Notes: a model not told the origin generated them from the sequence alone. Shown: positions 10,243 to 27,961, counted from the stretch's first letter. The stretch is 32,000 nucleotides of DNA from Candidatus Saccharimonadota bacterium (GCA_004563595.2 CP042461.1:1080001-1112000); one strand, 5' to 3'. Numbers and translations are program-made.

Positions 10243-10878
10243 CTACCTCCTAGATGCGTTATCTAACATACTGGTTTTTCTAATCCTTTTTTTCTTTGCA
10301 TCTGTTGTATTATCTAATATCGCTTTAGATTTTTTTTCTGCTAGATTGGTCAGCTCTATAAACTCTTCTCGATAATTCCTATACAATGCACCACGCAATG
10401 AAGGGTCGATAATTTGAATATCACCTCTCGAAAGGTAATCTTTCTCTTCATTGCAAGATTTGAGGTATGTGCCAAAATGGAGCTTAAAATAAGTTAGTGG
10501 ATCGCCGTGAAGGCCCCTGTTATAGCATTCATAGCCACTAATATAGGGAGATGGATCGAACTTCTTACCTTGATTCCTGACTACTTTGGCTGCCTCCATT
10601 AATTCTTGGGCGAGCTTTTCCTTTTCCGACAATAAGTCGCCAACCGGGTTAGTAAAGCCTGAAGTATCAAAAACTTCTTCAATAGCCTGATAAGTAACAT
10701 GCAATACCTTACGTATTTCCTTATTGTTTTCAACAGCTTTTTGAATAGCTTCTTTATCTAAACAGCTAATAAATCTAGCACTAAAAAGTAATACTGTTTC
10801 TATTGCTACATTGCCCTGCTTCCCTATATATGCCTTTAGCTCATGCTCACTATAAGAAAGTAATTGATTTATCCCCAT
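10243..10878 (-). CDS. Hypothetical protein, paralogue 1 of a tandem pair (211 aa); no TGA codons, GC-richer
   Basis: Intact ORF in the standard code. It is roughly half identical by eye to the 10946-11581 product. Shared blocks include MGIxxLLSYSExELK, VLLFSAR, KFDPSPY..YECY.R..HGDP, HFG..L.SCN and GALYR. It has a basic C-terminal tail. No family was recognised. Confidence 0.75.
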   Translation of the reverse strand: MGINQLLSYSEHELKAYIGKQGNVAIETVLLFSARFISCLDKEAIQKAVENNKEIRKVLHVTYQAIEEVFDTSGFTNPVGDLLSEKEKLAQELMEAAKVVRNQGKKFDPSPYISGYECYNRGLHGDPLTYFKLHFGTYLKSCNEEKDYLSRGDIQIIDPSLRGALYRNYREEFIELTNLAEKKSKAILDNTTDAKKKRIRKTSMLDNASRR

Positions 10879-10945
10879 ACTTGAAAAAATTAAATATAAA
10901 GTATAATTTATTATAGAATTGATTTGCGGTGATATATTATTGTAT

Positions 10946-11581
10946 TTACTTGCGAGAAGAACTTTCTAAAGCACTAATCTTTTTTAATTTTTTAGCCCCT
11001 CTACTAGTCATTTGTTGTTTTATTACTTTTGATTTTTTTCCAGCAAGATAAGTCAACTTTTCAAATTCTTTGCGATGGCTCCTATATAGCGCTCCCCAGA
11101 GTGCTGGGTCAACAACTGGAACGTCACCACGCCATAGATAATTAATACCCTCTTTATTGCAAGACCCCAAAAACTCCCCGAAATGCTTTCTTAAATATTC
11201 CACTGGGTCGCCGTGCTTTTCTCTTTTATAACATTCATAGTTTGGTAAGTAGGGAGAGGGATCAAACTTTTGACCTTTCTTTTTAGCTGCTTTAGCTGCA
11301 TTCATAAGAACGCTGGCTTGAATCTTTTTGCTCTCCTGCAAGTCGCCCACACGATTTATACAGTTTGGTTCCAGCGCATCTTCAATACCTTGGTAGGATG
11401 CGTGCAATGTCTCGCGTATTTCTGCATTGGTTTCCGCAACCCTTTGAATGGTTTTTACATCTATCAAATTGATTAGCCTAGCACTAAAAAGCAATACCGC
11501 TTTTTTTGTGGTATCACTTTGTTTGCTGATATATTCCTTTAACTCGCGCTCACTATAAGAAAGTAATTCACTTATCCCCAT
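10946..11581 (-). CDS. Hypothetical protein, paralogue 2 of a tandem pair (211 aa); no TGA codons, GC-richer
   Basis: Intact ORF in the standard code and a paralogue of 10243-10878. The sequence just upstream of the start (tatatttatttttttt aagtATGGGGAT) is also duplicated. Confidence 0.75.
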   Translation of the reverse strand: MGISELLSYSERELKEYISKQSDTTKKAVLLFSARLINLIDVKTIQRVAETNAEIRETLHASYQGIEDALEPNCINRVGDLQESKKIQASVLMNAAKAAKKKGQKFDPSPYLPNYECYKREKHGDPVEYLRKHFGEFLGSCNKEGINYLWRGDVPVVDPALWGALYRSHRKEFEKLTYLAGKKSKVIKQQMTSRGAKKLKKISALESSSRK

Positions 11582-11682: not shown

Positions 11683-11787
11683 TTATTTCAAAGACTGTAG
11701 TTCCTTATTAAATTTATTCAATTTATCAAAATCTATCTCCTCCAATAATCTATAAAAGTTCGAGTATTCAGCCCCTCAGGAGTACCA
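11683..11787 (-). pseudogene. Cassette boundary repeat R1: 48-nt arm plus 9-nt tRNA-Glu 3' core. The minus strand reads as a 34-codon C-terminal gene fragment.
   Basis: The minus strand from the core reads WYSG(TGA)GAEYSNFYRLLEEIDFDKLNKFNKELQSLK*. There is no start codon. Upstream of the core, homology to the other copies is lost and a terminator hairpin follows. Confidence 0.6.
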
Positions 11788-11922
11788 TAACAGATTACAA
11801 AAAAAAGCCCTCGATAGAGGGCTTTTTAGTTCAATCCCTTTTAGGTATATTTCTGTATTTTTACTATAAAATCCCCTTTGTTAGGGATATTTATAACAGT
11901 TCAATTCCCCTTAGGTCTTTAC
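11779..11922 (+). repeat. Duplicated 144-nt block, copy 2 (core, terminator, three decayed tRNA-end motifs)
   Basis: See 9263-9406. The hairpin is gccctc-gata-gagggc at 11807-11822, followed by a T-run. Confidence 0.85.
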
Positions 11923-12272
11923 ATTATAAATTCACTAAATATTATGAATAAAATATTGCTTTCAGTAGCTGAAAAGAGAGCTATAGAAGAAGGTATTGAT
12001 GGAGCTTTTGATGATGTTAAAAATATCTAAATATAATTCTGATAACCTGAATTATCGGAACTAGAATAAACTAAAAAACTTTATGTTTTCATTCCTTATT
12101 TTTAATAAGTTTATATATAGAGAACCTTATATTTCAACTTTTAATCAGTTTGGTAAATTCCAAGTGTTAAATGTTTGGTTCAAGATATTGTTTTGAAAGA
12201 AGGGTTATAATTGTTTTTGTATAGATCTATTTTTATATATAATCTTAGTATTTATTTAATGATCTCCTATAA

Positions 12273-13328
12273 ATGAAAAAAATATTAATTTTAGTTTGAG
12301 CCGGAGCAAGTAAATTTTGCAATTATACTGATAAGGGGAGCGTTAAATTTATAAATGATAATGTTAGCGACGAGTATAAAATGCCTCCTTTGGGAGATGA
12401 ATTATTTAATGAGTTAGTTAATAATGGATATAGCGAAGAATTAAGTAAATTACCCGATGATTTAAAAGAGGTGTTTAAAACAGAGGGGTTTGAAAAAGGT
12501 ATGGAAAAGTGTTTGAGTACAGATGTTAAAAATAAGGATCTAGCTATTCTTTGAACAAAGTCTCAGAAAGAAATCCAAGAATATGTGGAGCATTTGAGAA
12601 CATCGACTATTGATGAGGCTAAATTACTTAGAGAAATGTGAAAATATTTTTTGAGATTTTATATATCTACAGACGATAAAGAAAATAATCTATATTATCT
12701 TTTACTGAAAAATTTAATAGCTAATAACATAGAGCTTTCAATTTCTTCCTTAAATTATGAATGTTTGATTGAAGAAGCATTTAAGCATATCAATAATACA
12801 AATTCAAAATTTCAATTTATAAAGCCACATGGTTCTGCAAATTTCTTACCAATTATGGCTGTGAATGGAAAAATTAGGTCCTCTCAGCTTTCTATCTTGG
12901 CTGCTACAAAAATAGGTAAAATTGGGCCTACAAAGGTATTTTTAAGAGAAGATGCCTTAAATCACATCAATGGTGAAAATTGATTAATTATACCAGTAAT
13001 GTCAAGGTATATGCAGAACAAAGAAGGTTCTTTAAATGATGACTATATAAAGGAACATAAACAATATCTTAAAGAAAAAATTGAATCATCAGATAAAATA
13101 ATTGTAATTGGTGTGAAAATTACAGAAGAAGATACTCATATATGGAGTAACTTAGCAAAGTCTAAAGCTGATATCTGCTATGTTTCATGAAGTGATCTAC
13201 TATTTAATGACTGGAAAGATAAGAATAATCGTAATACTAAAAATGATATACACAGAAAAGGTTTTAGAGATATGTTTAATACAATGGACTCTTTCCCAGA
13301 TATCGTTAATAATTTTCTGACTGTTTAA
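12273..13328 (+). CDS. SIR2_2-like (DHS-like NAD-binding fold) protein, stand-alone (351 aa under table 25)
   Basis: The motif order matches the SIR2-like defence family: ILVG(TGA)AGASKF (GAGxS), PPLGDELFNEL, SSLNYECLIEEAF (TxNYDxLxE), IKPHGSANF (KxHGS), IIVIGVKITEEDTHIW. Five in-frame TGA codons are present. Track ORFs 12651 and 12999 are in frame. Confidence 0.7.
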
Positions 13329-13406
13329 AATAAATAGCCCCCTCTATTAAGGTCTTTCTTTTAAAATTTATTTACGTACTCAACTAAATTAATTTTATTT
13401 ATTTAA

Positions 13407-13508
13407 TTATACTCTCTTTATAATTTTTACAAATTCTCTCAACTTATCTAACTCTACCTCCTCCAATAACCTATAAAAGTTCAAGTATTCAACCCCTCAG
13501 GAGTACCA
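13407..13508 (-). pseudogene. Cassette boundary repeat R2: arm plus exact tRNA core. The minus strand reads as a C-terminal gene fragment.
   Basis: WYSGGVEYLNFYRLLEEVELDKLREFVKIIKRV*. An in-frame TAG lies 6 codons upstream of the core, so there is no N-terminal part. Confidence 0.6.
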
Positions 13509-13531
13509 TTTTGAAAATCAACTTTTCTAAT

Positions 13532-13575
13532 GAGTTCTAGTAAGTGACTTCTTGCTAACTAGAGCTCTTTTTTTT
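13532..13575 (+). terminator. Hairpin terminator at the start of cassette 3
   Basis: gagttctagt (13532-13541) pairs with actagagctc (13558-13567) with 1 mismatch, followed by a run of 8 T. Confidence 0.55.
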
Positions 13576-13735
13576 GTCTATTAAAAGTTCGCTACCAGAT
13601 AATTTCAAAATATTTATTTTTTTATTTATACCTATCTTAATATAGCCTCAATAAAGTTTTACAAAGGCTTAACTTGTTTATAATCTCTATCAGTTGATTT
13701 ACGATAATATATTATTATTTTTATCAAACAATAAG

Positions 13736-15019
13736 TTAATAATCTATTTGACTCTCATAATCTAGAATATGTGAGTATTTTTCTTTATATTCTTCTAAAT
13801 TAAAATATTCTAATATCATTTCATTAGCATTGTAAAATGAAATTAAAAGATCTCTATATCCATCAAAATTAAGTTTTCCATCTATTCTGAAAAGCTTATT
13901 TTTTTTACATGATAATTTAGGGTAATTAGATAATAATTTTTCTTTTCTTTTATTTAAATTGTCTATATCATAAAATAATATAGACCCATCAAAATGTTCA
14001 ATAACATTATCTTCTATATTAAACTTAGAATGAATTAATCTATTATAATAATAATCTTTATATTTATTTTCTCATATTTCTTCAATTAAAAAAGAATTAT
14101 CTCTTTGATCTATATTAAAGTCCGTATAGTAAATCTTATTTCAAAAATAATTATCAAATTTTTTATTTAACCTCTTTTTCCTTGTAAATAATACTTTATC
14201 AGACTTTGTAAAAAATTTATCAATACTAAACTCTGGTCAGAAAAATAATCCTCAAAGGAAAATAAATTCTTTATAGTTTTCTTTACCAATAATTTTATTA
14301 AAATTTAATTTTATTTTGAACTTACATTCATCTGAGTTATTTTTATATAATCAAAAGAAGTCAAAAACAAAAGGAGTTATAATACCTAAATCAAAAAATA
14401 AATCATCATAATAAATGAAGTAATCTTTCAAAAAAATTCATTCCCTATTATAGTTTATTTCTAAATCTGTAATATCTAATAATAAGTCTTTATCTATTAG
14501 TTCTAAAATATTAGGAAATTTCTCAAAAAAATCTTTTTTGCTTATGTTTGGAATTGTATTTTTTATTTCCTGATCTTTTGTAATACTATCAATTATTTCA
14601 TTCGCATCTTTTACATTATTTTCATTAATATATCTTATTATATAATCTCGATCTATTCATTCTATCTGGTCTGATAATATTGAACATATATCCTCTACTT
14701 TTTCCTTATATAAAAATTTAATTAAATCTTTATATAAGGAAATTAGTATTTCTTTTATATCTTGTATATTATTTTCACCTTTTAACCTAGATAATTCTTT
14801 AATATACCTTAATTTTTTAAGGTCTAATGGTATTGGATAAAAATCTAAACAAATTTCACTTTTTATTAAGTCATCATAATTTGCAATCGATTTAAGAGAA
14901 TTAATCGTATACAATAATTCTAATTTACCACTAGTAAAAACATGCTCTTTTTTATAAAATTTTTTCTTCTCTAAAGTTAGTTTTTCAATATATCACAATA
15001 TTAATTCTTTTTTATTCAT
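13736..15019 (-). CDS. Hypothetical protein (427 aa under table 25), no recognisable domain
   Basis: I checked every codon from 13736 to 14657: the frame contains no TAA or TAG and 8 TGA codons. Track ORF 14657-14914 is in frame. Start is ATG at comp(15017-15019). The sequence is very K/N/I/Y/F-rich. Confidence 0.7.
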
Positions 15020-15099
15020 AATTATATAAATAATAGATTACTAAATACATATATTCTAATTATTACCTGGAATACTTAAGCATATCAACTCTACTCAAT

Positions 15100-15159
15100 T
15101 CTTCTGAATATAGTTAATAAACTGTTAAAAATTCTAAATCCCCTCTATCAGGAGCACCA
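15100..15159 (+). repeat. Cassette boundary repeat R3 (degenerate arm plus core GGAGCACCA)
   Basis: aaatcccctctatcaggagcacca compares with cagcccctcaggagtacca. The minus-strand remnant YSEELSRVDMLKYSR* echoes LLEEIDFDKLNKF but is frameshifted. Confidence 0.45.
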
Positions 15160-15188
15160 ATTTTTAAATAAGGATAAGTTATTTATAG

Positions 15189-16118
15189 TTAAATATTCAT
15201 GGAATCAATAAGATATCTTCAAGATTCAAGATACCTTCATAAATCTGGGATTTCAATCATCTCACTTTTTCTACTATGCACAATATCATTTCTTAACTTT
15301 ATTCATGTAGCAATATCTTTAACTTTATCCTTTAGCGTTTCTCAAAAAAAATCCTCATCTATGCATCTAATGATTTCTTTTAATCAATCTTTTTTACTTC
15401 TCATATAATCAGAAACCTTTTCATCACTTCAAAGCTGTTGTAATAAATATCTTTTTGTTATTATTTCTATTGTGATTATTAATATTATTAATGATTCTTG
15501 CTTATGATTGTCTTTGAATAATCTCACTGCATTCATATAAAAAATTTCCTCAAGACCTATTTGCTCTTCTCACATAAGAATTTTATGAATGTTACTTATT
15601 TCTTCTTCTGTTCTATTTGCTCTTAGCAATGACCATCAAGTTGATGACATAAATAAATTTGATGCGCAACTACTACTTTCTCATACTTTATGGTGGCAAA
15701 TAGTAAATTCTCTCATATCTTCTTTTGATTCAATACCTCATATCTGAAATCTTCCAGTAATTAATCTGTATGAATCTATAAAATCATTTATAATATTTTT
15801 ATAGTATTTCCAGTAAAATCACTCTAAATTATCAAATGGTATTCCTAACTGCAATAAAGGAATAAATACTCTTAATCTACTGAACCTGAAAGCCGCATTT
15901 CTATCTGTTGCTATTTCCATATTTGTCGATTGTCAAAATCGTTCATCAAAACTTTGACGTACGTCTTCGATAACAATAACATATGGTTTTTTATTTCCAT
16001 TAAATTCAAACCTTCATTCTATTAAACGTCATCTATCGATGTGAAAACATATATCGCTTTCATAAGAAATTTCTATATATTCATCCATTCACAAATATTC
16101 ATTCATTGTTTTATTCAT
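15189..16118 (-). CDS. HEPN-domain protein (Rx4H motif), putative abortive-infection-type RNase (309 aa under table 25)
   Basis: I checked every codon: there is no TAA or TAG, and about 20 TGA=Gly. The C-terminal helical domain carries IKLRNDIVHSRK (R-x4-H at comp 15276-15293). The N-terminal roughly 190 aa are unassigned. Confidence 0.65.
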
Positions 16119-16258
16119 ACTATTGTTATTATAGAAGATAATAAACAAGATTTTTATTATCACATCAACATCACTTTTATTAAATAATACTGACTACATA
16201 TTAACAGGACATTAATATTTGAAAGTTTCTTTTACTTTTCAGTTGACTAGATATAAGT

Positions 16259-16399
16259 TTATTGTGATCAAGAAGATAAATCATATAGAAGCTTAATTTG
16301 ATACAGTTTGTATTTCTTTAAAAAATAATTTTAATTCCTCTAAATCAATCTCCTCCAACAATCTATAAAAGTTCGAGTATTCAGCCCCTCAGGTGTACC
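16259..16399 (-). pseudogene. Cassette boundary repeat R4: arm plus core (GGTGTACCA). The minus strand reads as a C-terminal gene fragment.
   Basis: WYTGGAEYSNFYRLLEEIDLEELKLFLKKYKLYQIKLLYDLSSGSQ*. The arm at 16343-16399 differs from R1 at 3 of 57 positions. Confidence 0.6.
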
Positions 16400-16411
16400 A
16401 TAACAAACTAC

Positions 16412-16440
16412 AAATAAAAAGCCCTCATAAGAGGGCTTTT
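16412..16440. terminator. Bidirectional hairpin terminator, probably the original tRNA-Glu/cysK terminator
   Basis: aaataaaaa, then gccctc-ataa-gagggc, then ttttt. It is similar to the hairpins at 9283-9311 and 11799-11827. Confidence 0.7.
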
Positions 16441-16512
16441 TATCTGTGAAAAATTGTATATCTTCCCATTCTTATATTATACACCTCGCTTCTATCATTT
16501 AACTCTATTCTT

Positions 16513-17445
16513 TTAAGCTGTGATATTTTCAAAAAGAACGGAAGATAAATAACGTTCTCAACAAGAAGGTAATATGAAAACGATGAGCTTTCCTGCGTTT
16601 TCTGGTCTCTTCGCTACTTCTAAAGCTACGTAAAATGCTGCTCCCGAGGAAATACCCGATAGAATACCTTCTTTTAATGCTAATTCTCTCGCCGTTTGGA
16701 TTGCATTTTCATTAGAAACGGTAATAACTTCATCAATCAAGGTAGTATCTAATATCTTTGGAATAAATCACGCTCAGATCCCTTGAATCTTATGAGGTCC
16801 TGGCTCTCACCCTGAAAGAACAGAACTTGACTCAGGTTCAACAGCAATTACTTTAAAATCAGGATTACGACTTTTAAGAACTGACGCAATACCTGTCAAA
16901 GTTCCTCCTGTTCCAACACCTGAAATTAATATGTCTACCTTTCCATCAGTATCATTCCATATTTCTTCAGCAGTAGTTTTTTGATGAATTTCAACATTAG
17001 CATTATTAGCAAATTGATCGAGTATATGAGAATTTGGAGTAGATTTCTGTAATTCTTCTGCTTTTGCAATAGCTCATTTAATACCCTTACTTGCTTCTGT
17101 TAACACTAATTCAGCACCATAAGCTTTTAATAATTTCCTACGCTCAATAGACATACTTTCTGGCATAGTTAATATGAGTTTATAACCTTTTATTGCAGAT
17201 ACAAAAGCTAAAGCAATACCTGTATTTCCCGATGTTGGCTCAATCAAAGTTGTTTTACCTGGAGTAATGAAACCTTGTTTTTCTGCATCTTCAATCATAT
17301 TAAATCCAATACGATCTTTCACCGAGCTAGCTGGATTAAAATATTCTAGTTTAGCAACTATTCTTGCACTTGTATTATTAAGACGATTAATTTGAACTAA
17401 CGGAGTATTACCGATCAATTCAGTAAGATCTTTTGCTATTTTCAT
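16513..17445 (-). CDS. cysK: Cysteine synthase A / O-acetylserine sulfhydrylase (310 aa under table 25)
   Basis: [25 protein letters not shown] (PLP lysine), [27 protein letters not shown](TGA)AG(TGA)FIP and LPSCG(TGA)ERYLSSVLF. Track ORFs 16558 and 17074 are in frame. Confidence 0.95.
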
Positions 17446-27628: not shown

Positions 27629-27961
27629 TTACGCTCTTCCACAAAGACAATAAAATTCGGGATTATTTTGAGCGTCTATTACAGAGGTTACAGCTTGTTT
27701 AAGATTTACAAAGTCCTTTACTACTGGATTTTTTTTCAAAAATAATGAACATAGATTTCGAGCATCAATTTGATCAAAAATTTTTGCCTTATAGATCAAC
27801 CTATGACAAAAATTGCACTCCTTCATAAATCCTATTGCTAATGCAACTTCAACCCCTTTGGTAGGTTGAAATATATCATGTGCAACATGTCCCATAGTAA
27901 CTTTTCCTCGCGATAAGTGAATCAAGCACCGAGAGTATATAAGCATATTTGACTCTGTCAA
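27629..27961 (-). CDS. Hypothetical protein (about 105-110 aa); start unclear (TTG at 27961 or ATG 5 codons in)
   Basis: Uninterrupted ORF with no TGA, directly downstream of the DUF4015-like gene. No family was recognised. Confidence 0.4.
   Translation of the reverse strand: MTESNMLIYSRCLIHLSRGKVTMGHVAHDIFQPTKGVEVALAIGFMKECNFCHRLIYKAKIFDQIDARNLCSLFLKKNPVVKDFVNLKQAVTSVIDAQNNPEFYCLCGRA

Follow-up and report, generated by a model that had tools for sequence, protein, structure and literature searches.

What are the short, start-less open reading frames (ORFs) that recur downstream of a tRNA-Glu gene in Candidatus (Ca.) Gracilibacteria bacterium 28_42_T64, and why does each of them begin at a sequence taken from the end of that tRNA? 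We addressed this question in a 32-kb window of the genome of this candidate phyla radiation (CPR) bacterium; the window is the whole stretch of DNA that was analysed, and its positions are 1-based. The repeats, here called arms, lie in an island of ~7 kb between an intact tRNA-Glu(CTC) gene (9197–9271, plus strand; ARAGORN; Rfam tRNA, 57.8 bits; CCA encoded) and its original-looking terminator, D0, with six protein-coding genes inside. As the initial annotation of this DNA had proposed, the arms have the appearance of C-terminal pieces of coding sequence, truncated exactly at a recombination core. Judging from sequence comparisons, we think it somewhat probable that they are orphaned recombinase tails at junctions of the attR type (the right-hand attachment, or att, site of an integrated element). 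Their source genes would most likely have been large serine recombinases.

In ENA, the window is part of a contig of 412 kb (ERZ510998 NODE_17). The closed 1.34-Mb genome was described by Sieber et al. 2019 and annotated with code 25 (PMC6851277); the hypervariable locus treated there is a PTD-repeat gene and not the tRNA-Glu island. TGA codons occupy invariant Gly positions of FtsZ and PurA, and therefore table 25, in which TGA is Gly, applies. Reading through TGA raises the ORF content from 2,641 to 11,795 amino acids (aa).

Three intact arms and two decayed copies are present, and all intact ones start at the core at the tRNA end, so the repeats first noticed in the initial annotation are real. 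Read on the minus strand, arm1 (11683–11787) begins at the core and translates as WYSGGAEYSNFYRLLEEIDFDKLNKFNKELQSLK, arm2 (13407–13508) as WYSGGVEYLNFYRLLEEVELDKLREFVKIIKRV and arm3 (16293–16400) as WYTGGAEYSNFYRLLEEIDLEELKLFFKEIQTVSN; each is 33–35 codons long and ends in a stop codon. Translations given earlier for arm1 and arm2 were correct, while that of arm3 slipped out of frame after LKLF and was ended at 16259 instead of 16293. A joint nucleotide profile recovers the three intact arms with E-values of 1e-27 to 1e-30. The decayed arm0 (10149–10230, minus strand; repeat family D4; nhmmer E = 0.004 for 10179–10209) translates as YYYRLLKEIDIVADKEIFSGN up to its stop codon. Its core and core-proximal half are gone, and it adjoins the start codon of a gene for an HNH-like protein. 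The other decayed copy (15084–15159, minus strand; weak, with E about 1) lies between genes for a 427-aa and a 309-aa protein and retains a decayed core (GGAGCACCA, 15151–15159). It contains indels and stops, which show the neutral decay of an arm once constraint is gone.

Several features argue for a coding origin of the arms. Only one of the six frames is open in all three intact copies, and this is the arm frame. There are no indels among these copies over 99 nucleotides (nt), even though their distal halves are only 56–67% identical, and similarity among the arms ends at their stop codons, which fall within two codons of one another. A column shuffle of the divergent distal half, scored by BLOSUM sum, gave p = 4e-4 (0.01 among stop-free shuffles), in support of the conservative replacements and the coding origin that had been proposed. 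The claim of codon-periodic differences was overstated. Variable sites at codon positions 1/2/3 number 10/7/15 overall (chi-square, p = 0.22), and a count of 3/2/9 (p = 0.046) is obtained only in a hand-picked stretch. In the intergenic DNA of the island, stops make up 7% of triplets and a 33-codon frame would stay open by chance with a probability of ~0.09; therefore, the coding evidence is moderate rather than overwhelming. A coding origin is the best reading of these sequence patterns, and we hold it with moderate confidence.

The arms could instead be non-coding P-arm DNA of an att site, conserved through binding of a recombinase or accessory protein, with a protein-like pattern that arose by coincidence in AT-rich DNA. 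The core-proximal 51 nt contain 5 variable sites compared to 27 in the distal 48 nt (Fisher, p = 1e-6). This proximal part has no third-position bias; it is conserved at all codon positions, and three of its five changes are non-synonymous. The non-significant overall codon-position bias and the lack of a protein homologue in the searched collections also fit such DNA, as does a short sequence, TCTATAAA, that the arms have in common with a related element described below: it lies 38–39 nt from the CCA end in both, but in different reading frames. The same explanation fares poorly with the arm frame being the only one open in all three copies, with conservative distal replacements, with the lack of indels at this level of divergence, with homology that stops at the three stop codons, and with the frameshifts and stops of the decayed copy. 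Moreover, a genuine ORF crosses such a core in the related element. We consider non-coding DNA an unlikely explanation for the arms as a whole. The pattern in the proximal 51 nt points to a constraint that acts on the DNA itself in addition to coding, and an att half-site would be expected to show this.

The CCA and the following T of the core also create an ATG on the minus strand, from which a conserved 12-codon mini-ORF (MV[LH]LRGGILELL, then stop) runs at an offset of 2 nt from the arm frame (minus strand, 11749–11788, 13470–13509 and 16362–16401). This mini-ORF is probably a by-product of DNA conservation, because it is confined to the nucleotide-conserved part.

Are the arms genes in their own right? 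We rejected them as independent genes. As first noted in the initial annotation, none has a start codon. No arm contains an ATG, and upstream of the W that opens each fragment there is either a terminator hairpin (arm1 and arm3; bidirectional and directly adjacent) or an in-frame TAG (arm2, at a distance of six codons from W; the codons in between include no ATG, GTG or TTG). Gene callers do not predict the arms. These same points bear on the idea that the arms are small ORFs expressed today, as micro-proteins or leader peptides upstream of the cargo. Although an arm precedes a co-oriented cargo gene in four of the five cassettes and three copies keep an intact ORF, the missing start codons, the stop in arm2, the terminator directly upstream and the silence of the gene callers make current expression very improbable.

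The boundary at which the arms are cut is sharp. The core common to all copies is 10 nt long (GGAGTACCAT) and consists of the last 9 nt of tRNA-Glu and the following T (9263–9272). In a table of the junctions, its left edge is where the tRNA and the arms diverge, and its right edge is where arm2 departs from the other copies. The core occupies 11779–11788 in arm1, 13500–13509 in arm2 and 16392–16401 in arm3, where it has the variant form GGTGTACCAT. Exact copies of GGAGTACCA are found at 9263, 11779 and 13500, and copies that differ by one base at 16392 and 15151; with up to one mismatch allowed, there are 10 matches compared to 2.0 expected. A short identity that is bounded on both sides and common to the tRNA and all arms is a hallmark of site-specific crossover. 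Motifs of the half-sites were not above background in offset or symmetry; in the arms, AGTTCRA is displaced outward by 6 nt relative to the tRNA.

Every core is followed on its right by a flank of the terminator type (all on the plus strand). Next to the tRNA this is D1 (9272–9405), in which a bidirectional terminator hairpin is accompanied by two decayed 3' ends of tRNA-Glu (9312–9332 and 9382–9402). The right-hand partner of arm1 and its core is D2 (11788–11921), with a terminator and two tRNA 3' relics (11828–11848 and 11898–11918). Directly right of the arm2 core is flank X (13509–13580), a terminator hairpin unrelated to the D flanks. D0 (16401–16450; hairpin at ~16410–16447) follows the arm3 core; it is homologous to the starts of D1 and D2 and is presumably the original tRNA-Glu trailer. 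Together with a convergent cysK-like host gene to its right (16513–17445, minus strand), D0 lies 7.1 kb downstream of tRNA-Glu(CTC). The junction of tRNA, core and D1 looks like an attB (the host attachment site) that is unoccupied, and the junctions of arm, core and terminator are attR-like.

This layout bears directly on the analogy with phage 21 and e14 that had been drawn in the initial annotation. On that view, the arms would stem from the end of a host protein gene: integrating elements would aim at its 3' end and bring a replacement for it, and the arms would be the copies that were displaced. Several diverged 3' fragments in tandem do recall the icd duplications, but no host gene body adjoins any arm. 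A terminator or stop lies upstream of every arm where a host gene would have to read through the core, the last core is followed by a terminator and then the stop codon of the convergent cysK-like gene, the array is headed by a tRNA, and the arm motif is found in no protein of the host genome. We regard an icd-type origin as the least probable of the explanations considered, and scarcely credible.

What kind of gene could have been split at this core? The most informative comparison comes from contig L005 (ENA ERZ27262685, k141_673032), which is 5,248 nt long, has a GC content of 22.5% and belongs to another organism in which TGA is a sense codon. The link to it is the 309-aa cargo protein next to arm3. 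The only true homologue of this protein is encoded on L005; it aligns over 99% of the length with 51% identity (E = 2e-101), and tblastn gives ~52% identity (9e-108). L005 opens on its left with the last part of a host gene, followed by a terminator hairpin. The 8-mer AATGGTTC follows this host terminator at 134–141, and a start-less 44-codon ORF opens at the TGG of this core copy (136–270; WFTKSFFSKHFIENRKKGDYIKKTIFNLNEKIKFCERIEQEILF, which reads WFTKSF...EILF and then stops). Five small cargo genes come next, among them one for a 310-aa homologue of the protein encoded at 15189–16118 in the window. A 517-aa ORF for a large serine recombinase (3494–5047; Resolvase, 1e-20) then runs across a second copy of AATGGTTC (5031–5038) and ends NNTE-W-F-G-V. 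In doing so it enters a convergent and intact gene for tRNA-Gln(CTG) (5033–5106, minus strand) at its CCA end; further on there is a terminator, and then host rplL, represented by its 3' end.

The L005 protein scores 20.1 bits for Pfam Recombinase, just below the cut-off of 21.1, and its catalytic domain matches a solved recombinase of a conjugative transposon. The Resolvase match together with the sub-threshold Recombinase match is the architecture of a large serine recombinase. The 8-mer has only two occurrences in L005, and joining the recombinase body to the tail at the core gives an in-frame ORF of 557 codons with the core at codon 515. By our estimate, the 8-mer would recur by chance in 5 kb of such composition with a probability of ~0.06, and 44 codons would stay open in the frame fixed beforehand with a probability of ~0.03. 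Because the 8-mer pair and the in-frame tail make coincidence unlikely, we interpret 134–5106 as a complete integrated element of 4.9 kb, whose predicted recombinase gene spans attP (the attachment site of the element) and is split at the CCA end of the tRNA. On the minus strand, the window arms show the same order as the L005 tail: a terminator, ~15 nt, ATGGT, a fragment that begins at W, and cargo. The geometry of an attP inside a gene, as suggested in the initial annotation, is thus complete in L005, where the split gene is that of the recombinase; in the 32 kb of the window the arms have neither an N-terminal partner nor a recombinase remnant beside them.

It is also conceivable that the arms are the 3' ends of some other element gene, not the recombinase, that spanned or abutted attP. 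Such a gene would account equally for the coding signature, the arms have no detectable similarity to recombinase families, and the comparison of the arms with the L005 tail (below) is not significant. Against this, the sole related element available splits its recombinase gene, and the ORFs documented to extend across attP, those of bacteriophage Mx8 and the SSV viruses as named in the Islander paper of 2014 (PMC4383910), are integrases. An origin from a different element gene therefore seems distinctly doubtful to us.

If the arms are recombinase tails, each would derive from one of a family of L005-like elements directed at the CCA end of tRNAs. The source elements would have been small integrative elements in which the attP crossover fell within the last 35–45 codons of their own recombinase ORF. 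The core would be the antisense of the discriminator and CCA end of the tRNA, and the W codon, TGG, would be CCA read on the opposite strand. An element that integrates at this CCA end would have its recombinase body placed beside the tRNA, with an ORF that ends in antisense tRNA sequence. The original tail-coding segment would stay at the far junction, directly after the former tRNA terminator. On this model the window retains far junctions only (arm, core and terminator), three of them intact and two decayed, and each would keep the cargo that was formerly downstream of the recombinase tail, while the recombinase-proximal parts of the elements would have been lost later. In this way a cassette-like island of 7 kb would have arisen between tRNA-Glu and the terminator that it originally had. 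Differences between arms would reflect the divergence of intact recombinase genes across element lineages, which would explain why fragments that are now untranslatable carry coding-type substitutions.

A number of observations weigh against the arms being recombinase tails. In addition to the weak codon-position bias, the L005 tail and the arms, compared without gaps and anchored at W, are not significantly similar (p = 0.07), although the best score falls at offset 0, which speaks for the reading. The link to L005 consists of one shared cargo gene and the geometry; L005 is known from one contig of 5.2 kb, and no record contains the 557-aa ORF reconstituted from it. Within the window, a terminator-type flank and not the N-terminal part of a recombinase follows every core, all arm junctions are attR-like with no attL among them, and D1 and D2 are direct repeats with 91% identity. 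The attR-only junctions and the D1/D2 repeats count against simple serial integration with random decay, because such integration predicts neither. No recombinase gene or remnant was found in the window by Pfam or tblastn. A homologue of the arm peptides was absent from 5.8 billion proteins (word index) and from 1.84 billion representatives (full HMMER), and the searched protein collection holds the predicted proteins of the host genome, among which none has the arm motif; therefore, no intact arm paralogue is annotated in this genome. The initial annotation had itself named the recovery of a full-length homologue as the check on its proposal, and none was recovered from any database tried; by its own standard, this outcome speaks against the proposal.

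Other searches for relatives of the arms gave the same outcome. A degenerate DNA pattern for E-Y-[SLF]-N-F-Y-R-L-L-E-E had no match in GTDB genomes and JGI metagenomes, an arm nucleotide pattern had none in GTDB genomes or IMG/VR, and peptide-guided scans for related loci in IMG/VR and JGI metagenomes returned no arm homologue. A Pfam scan of the arm peptides gave no meaningful match and no recombinase family. Among IMG/VR and phage records, relatives of the L005 recombinase or cargo were limited to distant serine integrases with 23–27% identity, and the recombinase forms a singleton cluster. The lineage is very poorly sampled: a 224-aa host membrane protein encoded beside the tRNA has only itself as a homologue. 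No orthologous loci in relatives could be found through this protein, the lineage being too isolated for comparison.

Three further interpretations of the arms and their junctions were set aside. Integron-like attC sites or structured RNAs were excluded by DNA folding z-scores of -0.85 to +0.76 (both strands) and by the lack of an Rfam match. An origin of the arms from the 3' end of a second tRNA-Glu (hypothetically ending in TTCGAGTCCCCTCAGGAGTACCA) seems unlikely, as no tRNA model matches the arms and a search of IMG/VR gave no match to such an end. Finally, a Logan contig (SRR3580189_18271) that ends at 11776 suggested population heterogeneity at the arm1 core; this is an assembly artefact. 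The break is due to a 34-nt exact repeat that arm1 (11747–11780) and arm3 (16360–16393) have in common.

How could an array with attR-like junctions only have formed? The direct repeats at 9258–9405 and 11774–11921 (148 nt, 91% identical) comprise core, terminator and relics, and they bracket the HNH-like gene, two paralogous genes for 211-aa proteins and arm1. They suggest a Campbell-type (homologous) insertion of the bracketed block, or a pseudo-site of core and terminator that was carried by an element. For the array in general, recombinase-mediated deletion from attL to an internal core-terminator pseudo-site is possible, as is homologous, Campbell-type exchange through the core plus D flank, and whole modules could possibly have been imported from other strains. 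It should also be noted that the relics in D1 and D2 represent a longer tRNA-Glu 3' segment (AGTTCAAT onwards, without CCA) that has decayed, with a small hairpin beside each. They look like scars of older integrations of a different kind, by elements with ~20–25 nt of identity to the tRNA.

Taken jointly, the window and L005 would fit a family of mini-elements in CPR bacteria (Gracilibacteria-type, code 25) whose large serine recombinase has attP within the 3' part of its own coding sequence and acts at the CCA end of tRNA genes. In that case the tRNA-Glu island would be an array that this system built by gene capture: cargo plus tail would be deposited and the recombinase part would leave, for example through recombination of attL with an internal core-terminator pseudo-site. 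Departure of the recombinase part would explain both the attR-like junctions throughout and the D1/D2 duplication. We offer this combined scheme as a long shot.

The cargo genes of the island have few recognisable relatives; searches for their function (Pfam, PADLOC, PHROGs and NCBIfam) mostly gave no match. The first gene encodes the HNH-like protein of 248 aa (9412–10158, minus strand), which matches PHROG 10503 at 1e-57 and is 36% identical to a protein of Bacteriophage R18C. It is followed by the two tandem 211-aa paralogues (10243–11581, minus strand), which are 51% identical and TGA-free; an AlphaFold model of one of them was unusable, with a predicted local distance difference test (pLDDT) score of 53. 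A 351-aa protein (12273–13328, plus strand) has weak matches to PADLOC PDC-S21 (E = 1e-4) and a glycine-rich N-terminus of the GAGAS type. The 427-aa protein (13736–15019, minus strand) has no family match, and the 309-aa protein of the fifth cassette (15189–16118, minus strand) is the one with a homologue in the L005 element. Defence-type genes may be present in the island.

Codon usage differs along the sequence. Not one of the 670 codons in the three genes at 9412–11581 (the first two cassettes) is TGA, and the GC content of these genes is higher, at 32–34%; in host genes of the window TGA mostly accounts for ~2–7% of codons. A recent acquisition of the three genes from a source that uses the standard code, such as a phage, is possible. 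A 105-aa, Cys/His-rich ORF at 27629–27946 is also TGA-free, has no family match and lies among TGA-rich host genes; it could be foreign or spurious. In the host region upstream of the tRNA, the protein encoded at 4663–6321 has P-loop ATPase domains of the HerA/DUF87 and TraG types. Its gene is flanked by genes for a SpoIIE-type phosphatase and a transporter and has no evident link to the island.

How does this arrangement compare with known systems? Gene splitting by integration had been called an archaeal hallmark in the initial annotation, which overlooked Mx8, a bacteriophage with attP inside int. The target of Mx8 is reported to be the 3' end of a tRNA-Asp (Magrini 1999). The elements considered here resemble Mx8 in being bacterial and, as seen in L005, in having attP in the integrase gene; only the C-terminus would be altered (codon 515 of 557 in L005; arms of 33–35 codons, with no int body, in the window). 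A tRNA 3' end is targeted in each case, as the window core is the end of tRNA-Glu and that of L005 overlaps tRNA-Gln at its CCA end. In Mx8, integration of an attP that lies within the int coding sequence gives the gene a new 3' end and the enzyme stays active (PMC6070905). The differences are that Mx8 Int is a tyrosine recombinase whereas the L005 enzyme is predicted to be a large serine recombinase, that the core here is only 8–10 bp at the extreme CCA end, and that the window contains orphaned C-terminal pieces arrayed with cargo.

A parallel to SSV-type integrases had also been drawn, and it does not extend to the enzyme, since that of L005 is a large serine recombinase rather than a tyrosine integrase. 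In SSV1, pTN3 and pT26-2 the site is inside the recombinase ORF and int(N) and int(C) lie at opposite ends of the element; according to a 2021 review, such 'suicidal' integrases occur exclusively in archaea (PMC8371274). L005 is similar in having both int parts, in frame across its 8-bp core, and the window has fragments of the C type only. SSV-type enzymes are archaeal tyrosine recombinases (Pfam PF16795) in which the split separates off the catalytic domain, so that the enzyme is inactivated. Here, by contrast, a tail of 35–45 residues would be detached, the class is serine (in L005) and the host is a CPR bacterium; neither a tyrosine catalytic domain (Phage_integr_3) nor an archaeal host is involved.

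Large serine recombinase elements are the closer match in enzyme class. A short att identity between otherwise unrelated arms is typical of this class. L005 has a Resolvase domain, and the att identity is short in both cases (10 nt in the window, 8 nt in L005) with unrelated flanks, although the window has no Resolvase or Recombinase gene. According to the Islander paper, serine-family integrases were not known to target tRNA genes (PMC4383910). We found no serine integrase ORF described in the literature that spans its own attP.

As for the island, it shares a tRNA 3' anchor, att repeats that bound accessory modules and older tRNA relics with Islander tandem arrays and integrase-less modules resembling cis-mobilizable elements (CIMEs). 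It differs from them in that no module has an integrase, the repeat is a 10-bp core plus a coding-like arm of ~100 nt rather than a displaced piece of tRNA, and all internal junctions are attR-like. By the Islander definition, an integrase lies between the tDNA and a displaced fragment; the island has the tDNA and direct repeats of 9–10 nt, but no integrase. Integron cassettes are similar in being mostly single-gene and mostly co-oriented, with a conserved site-like repeat. Unlike these, the arms do not fold, the window has no IntI, attI or tyrosine recombinase, and the repeat, which contains part of an ORF, is located 5' of the cargo.

What appears to be new is a serine recombinase with an Mx8-like outcome at a tRNA; the sequence evidence for it would be indirect for the window and direct for one contig, L005. 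For annotation, start-less ORF tails beside tRNA-end repeats can mark old integration junctions, and a small island of accessory genes can be understood as several such junctions stacked together. Chimeric enzymes that arise through the re-joining of fragments have been proposed for the suicidal integrases of archaea. If the combined scheme of a mini-element family is true, orphan tails could likewise be re-joined to incoming recombinase bodies to give chimeric enzymes. A bacterial, tRNA-targeting element with a serine recombinase that spans attP would also extend the rules that such splits are archaeal and that serine integrases do not target tRNA genes. Compact elements of this kind would be candidate genetic tools for CPR bacteria, which have none.

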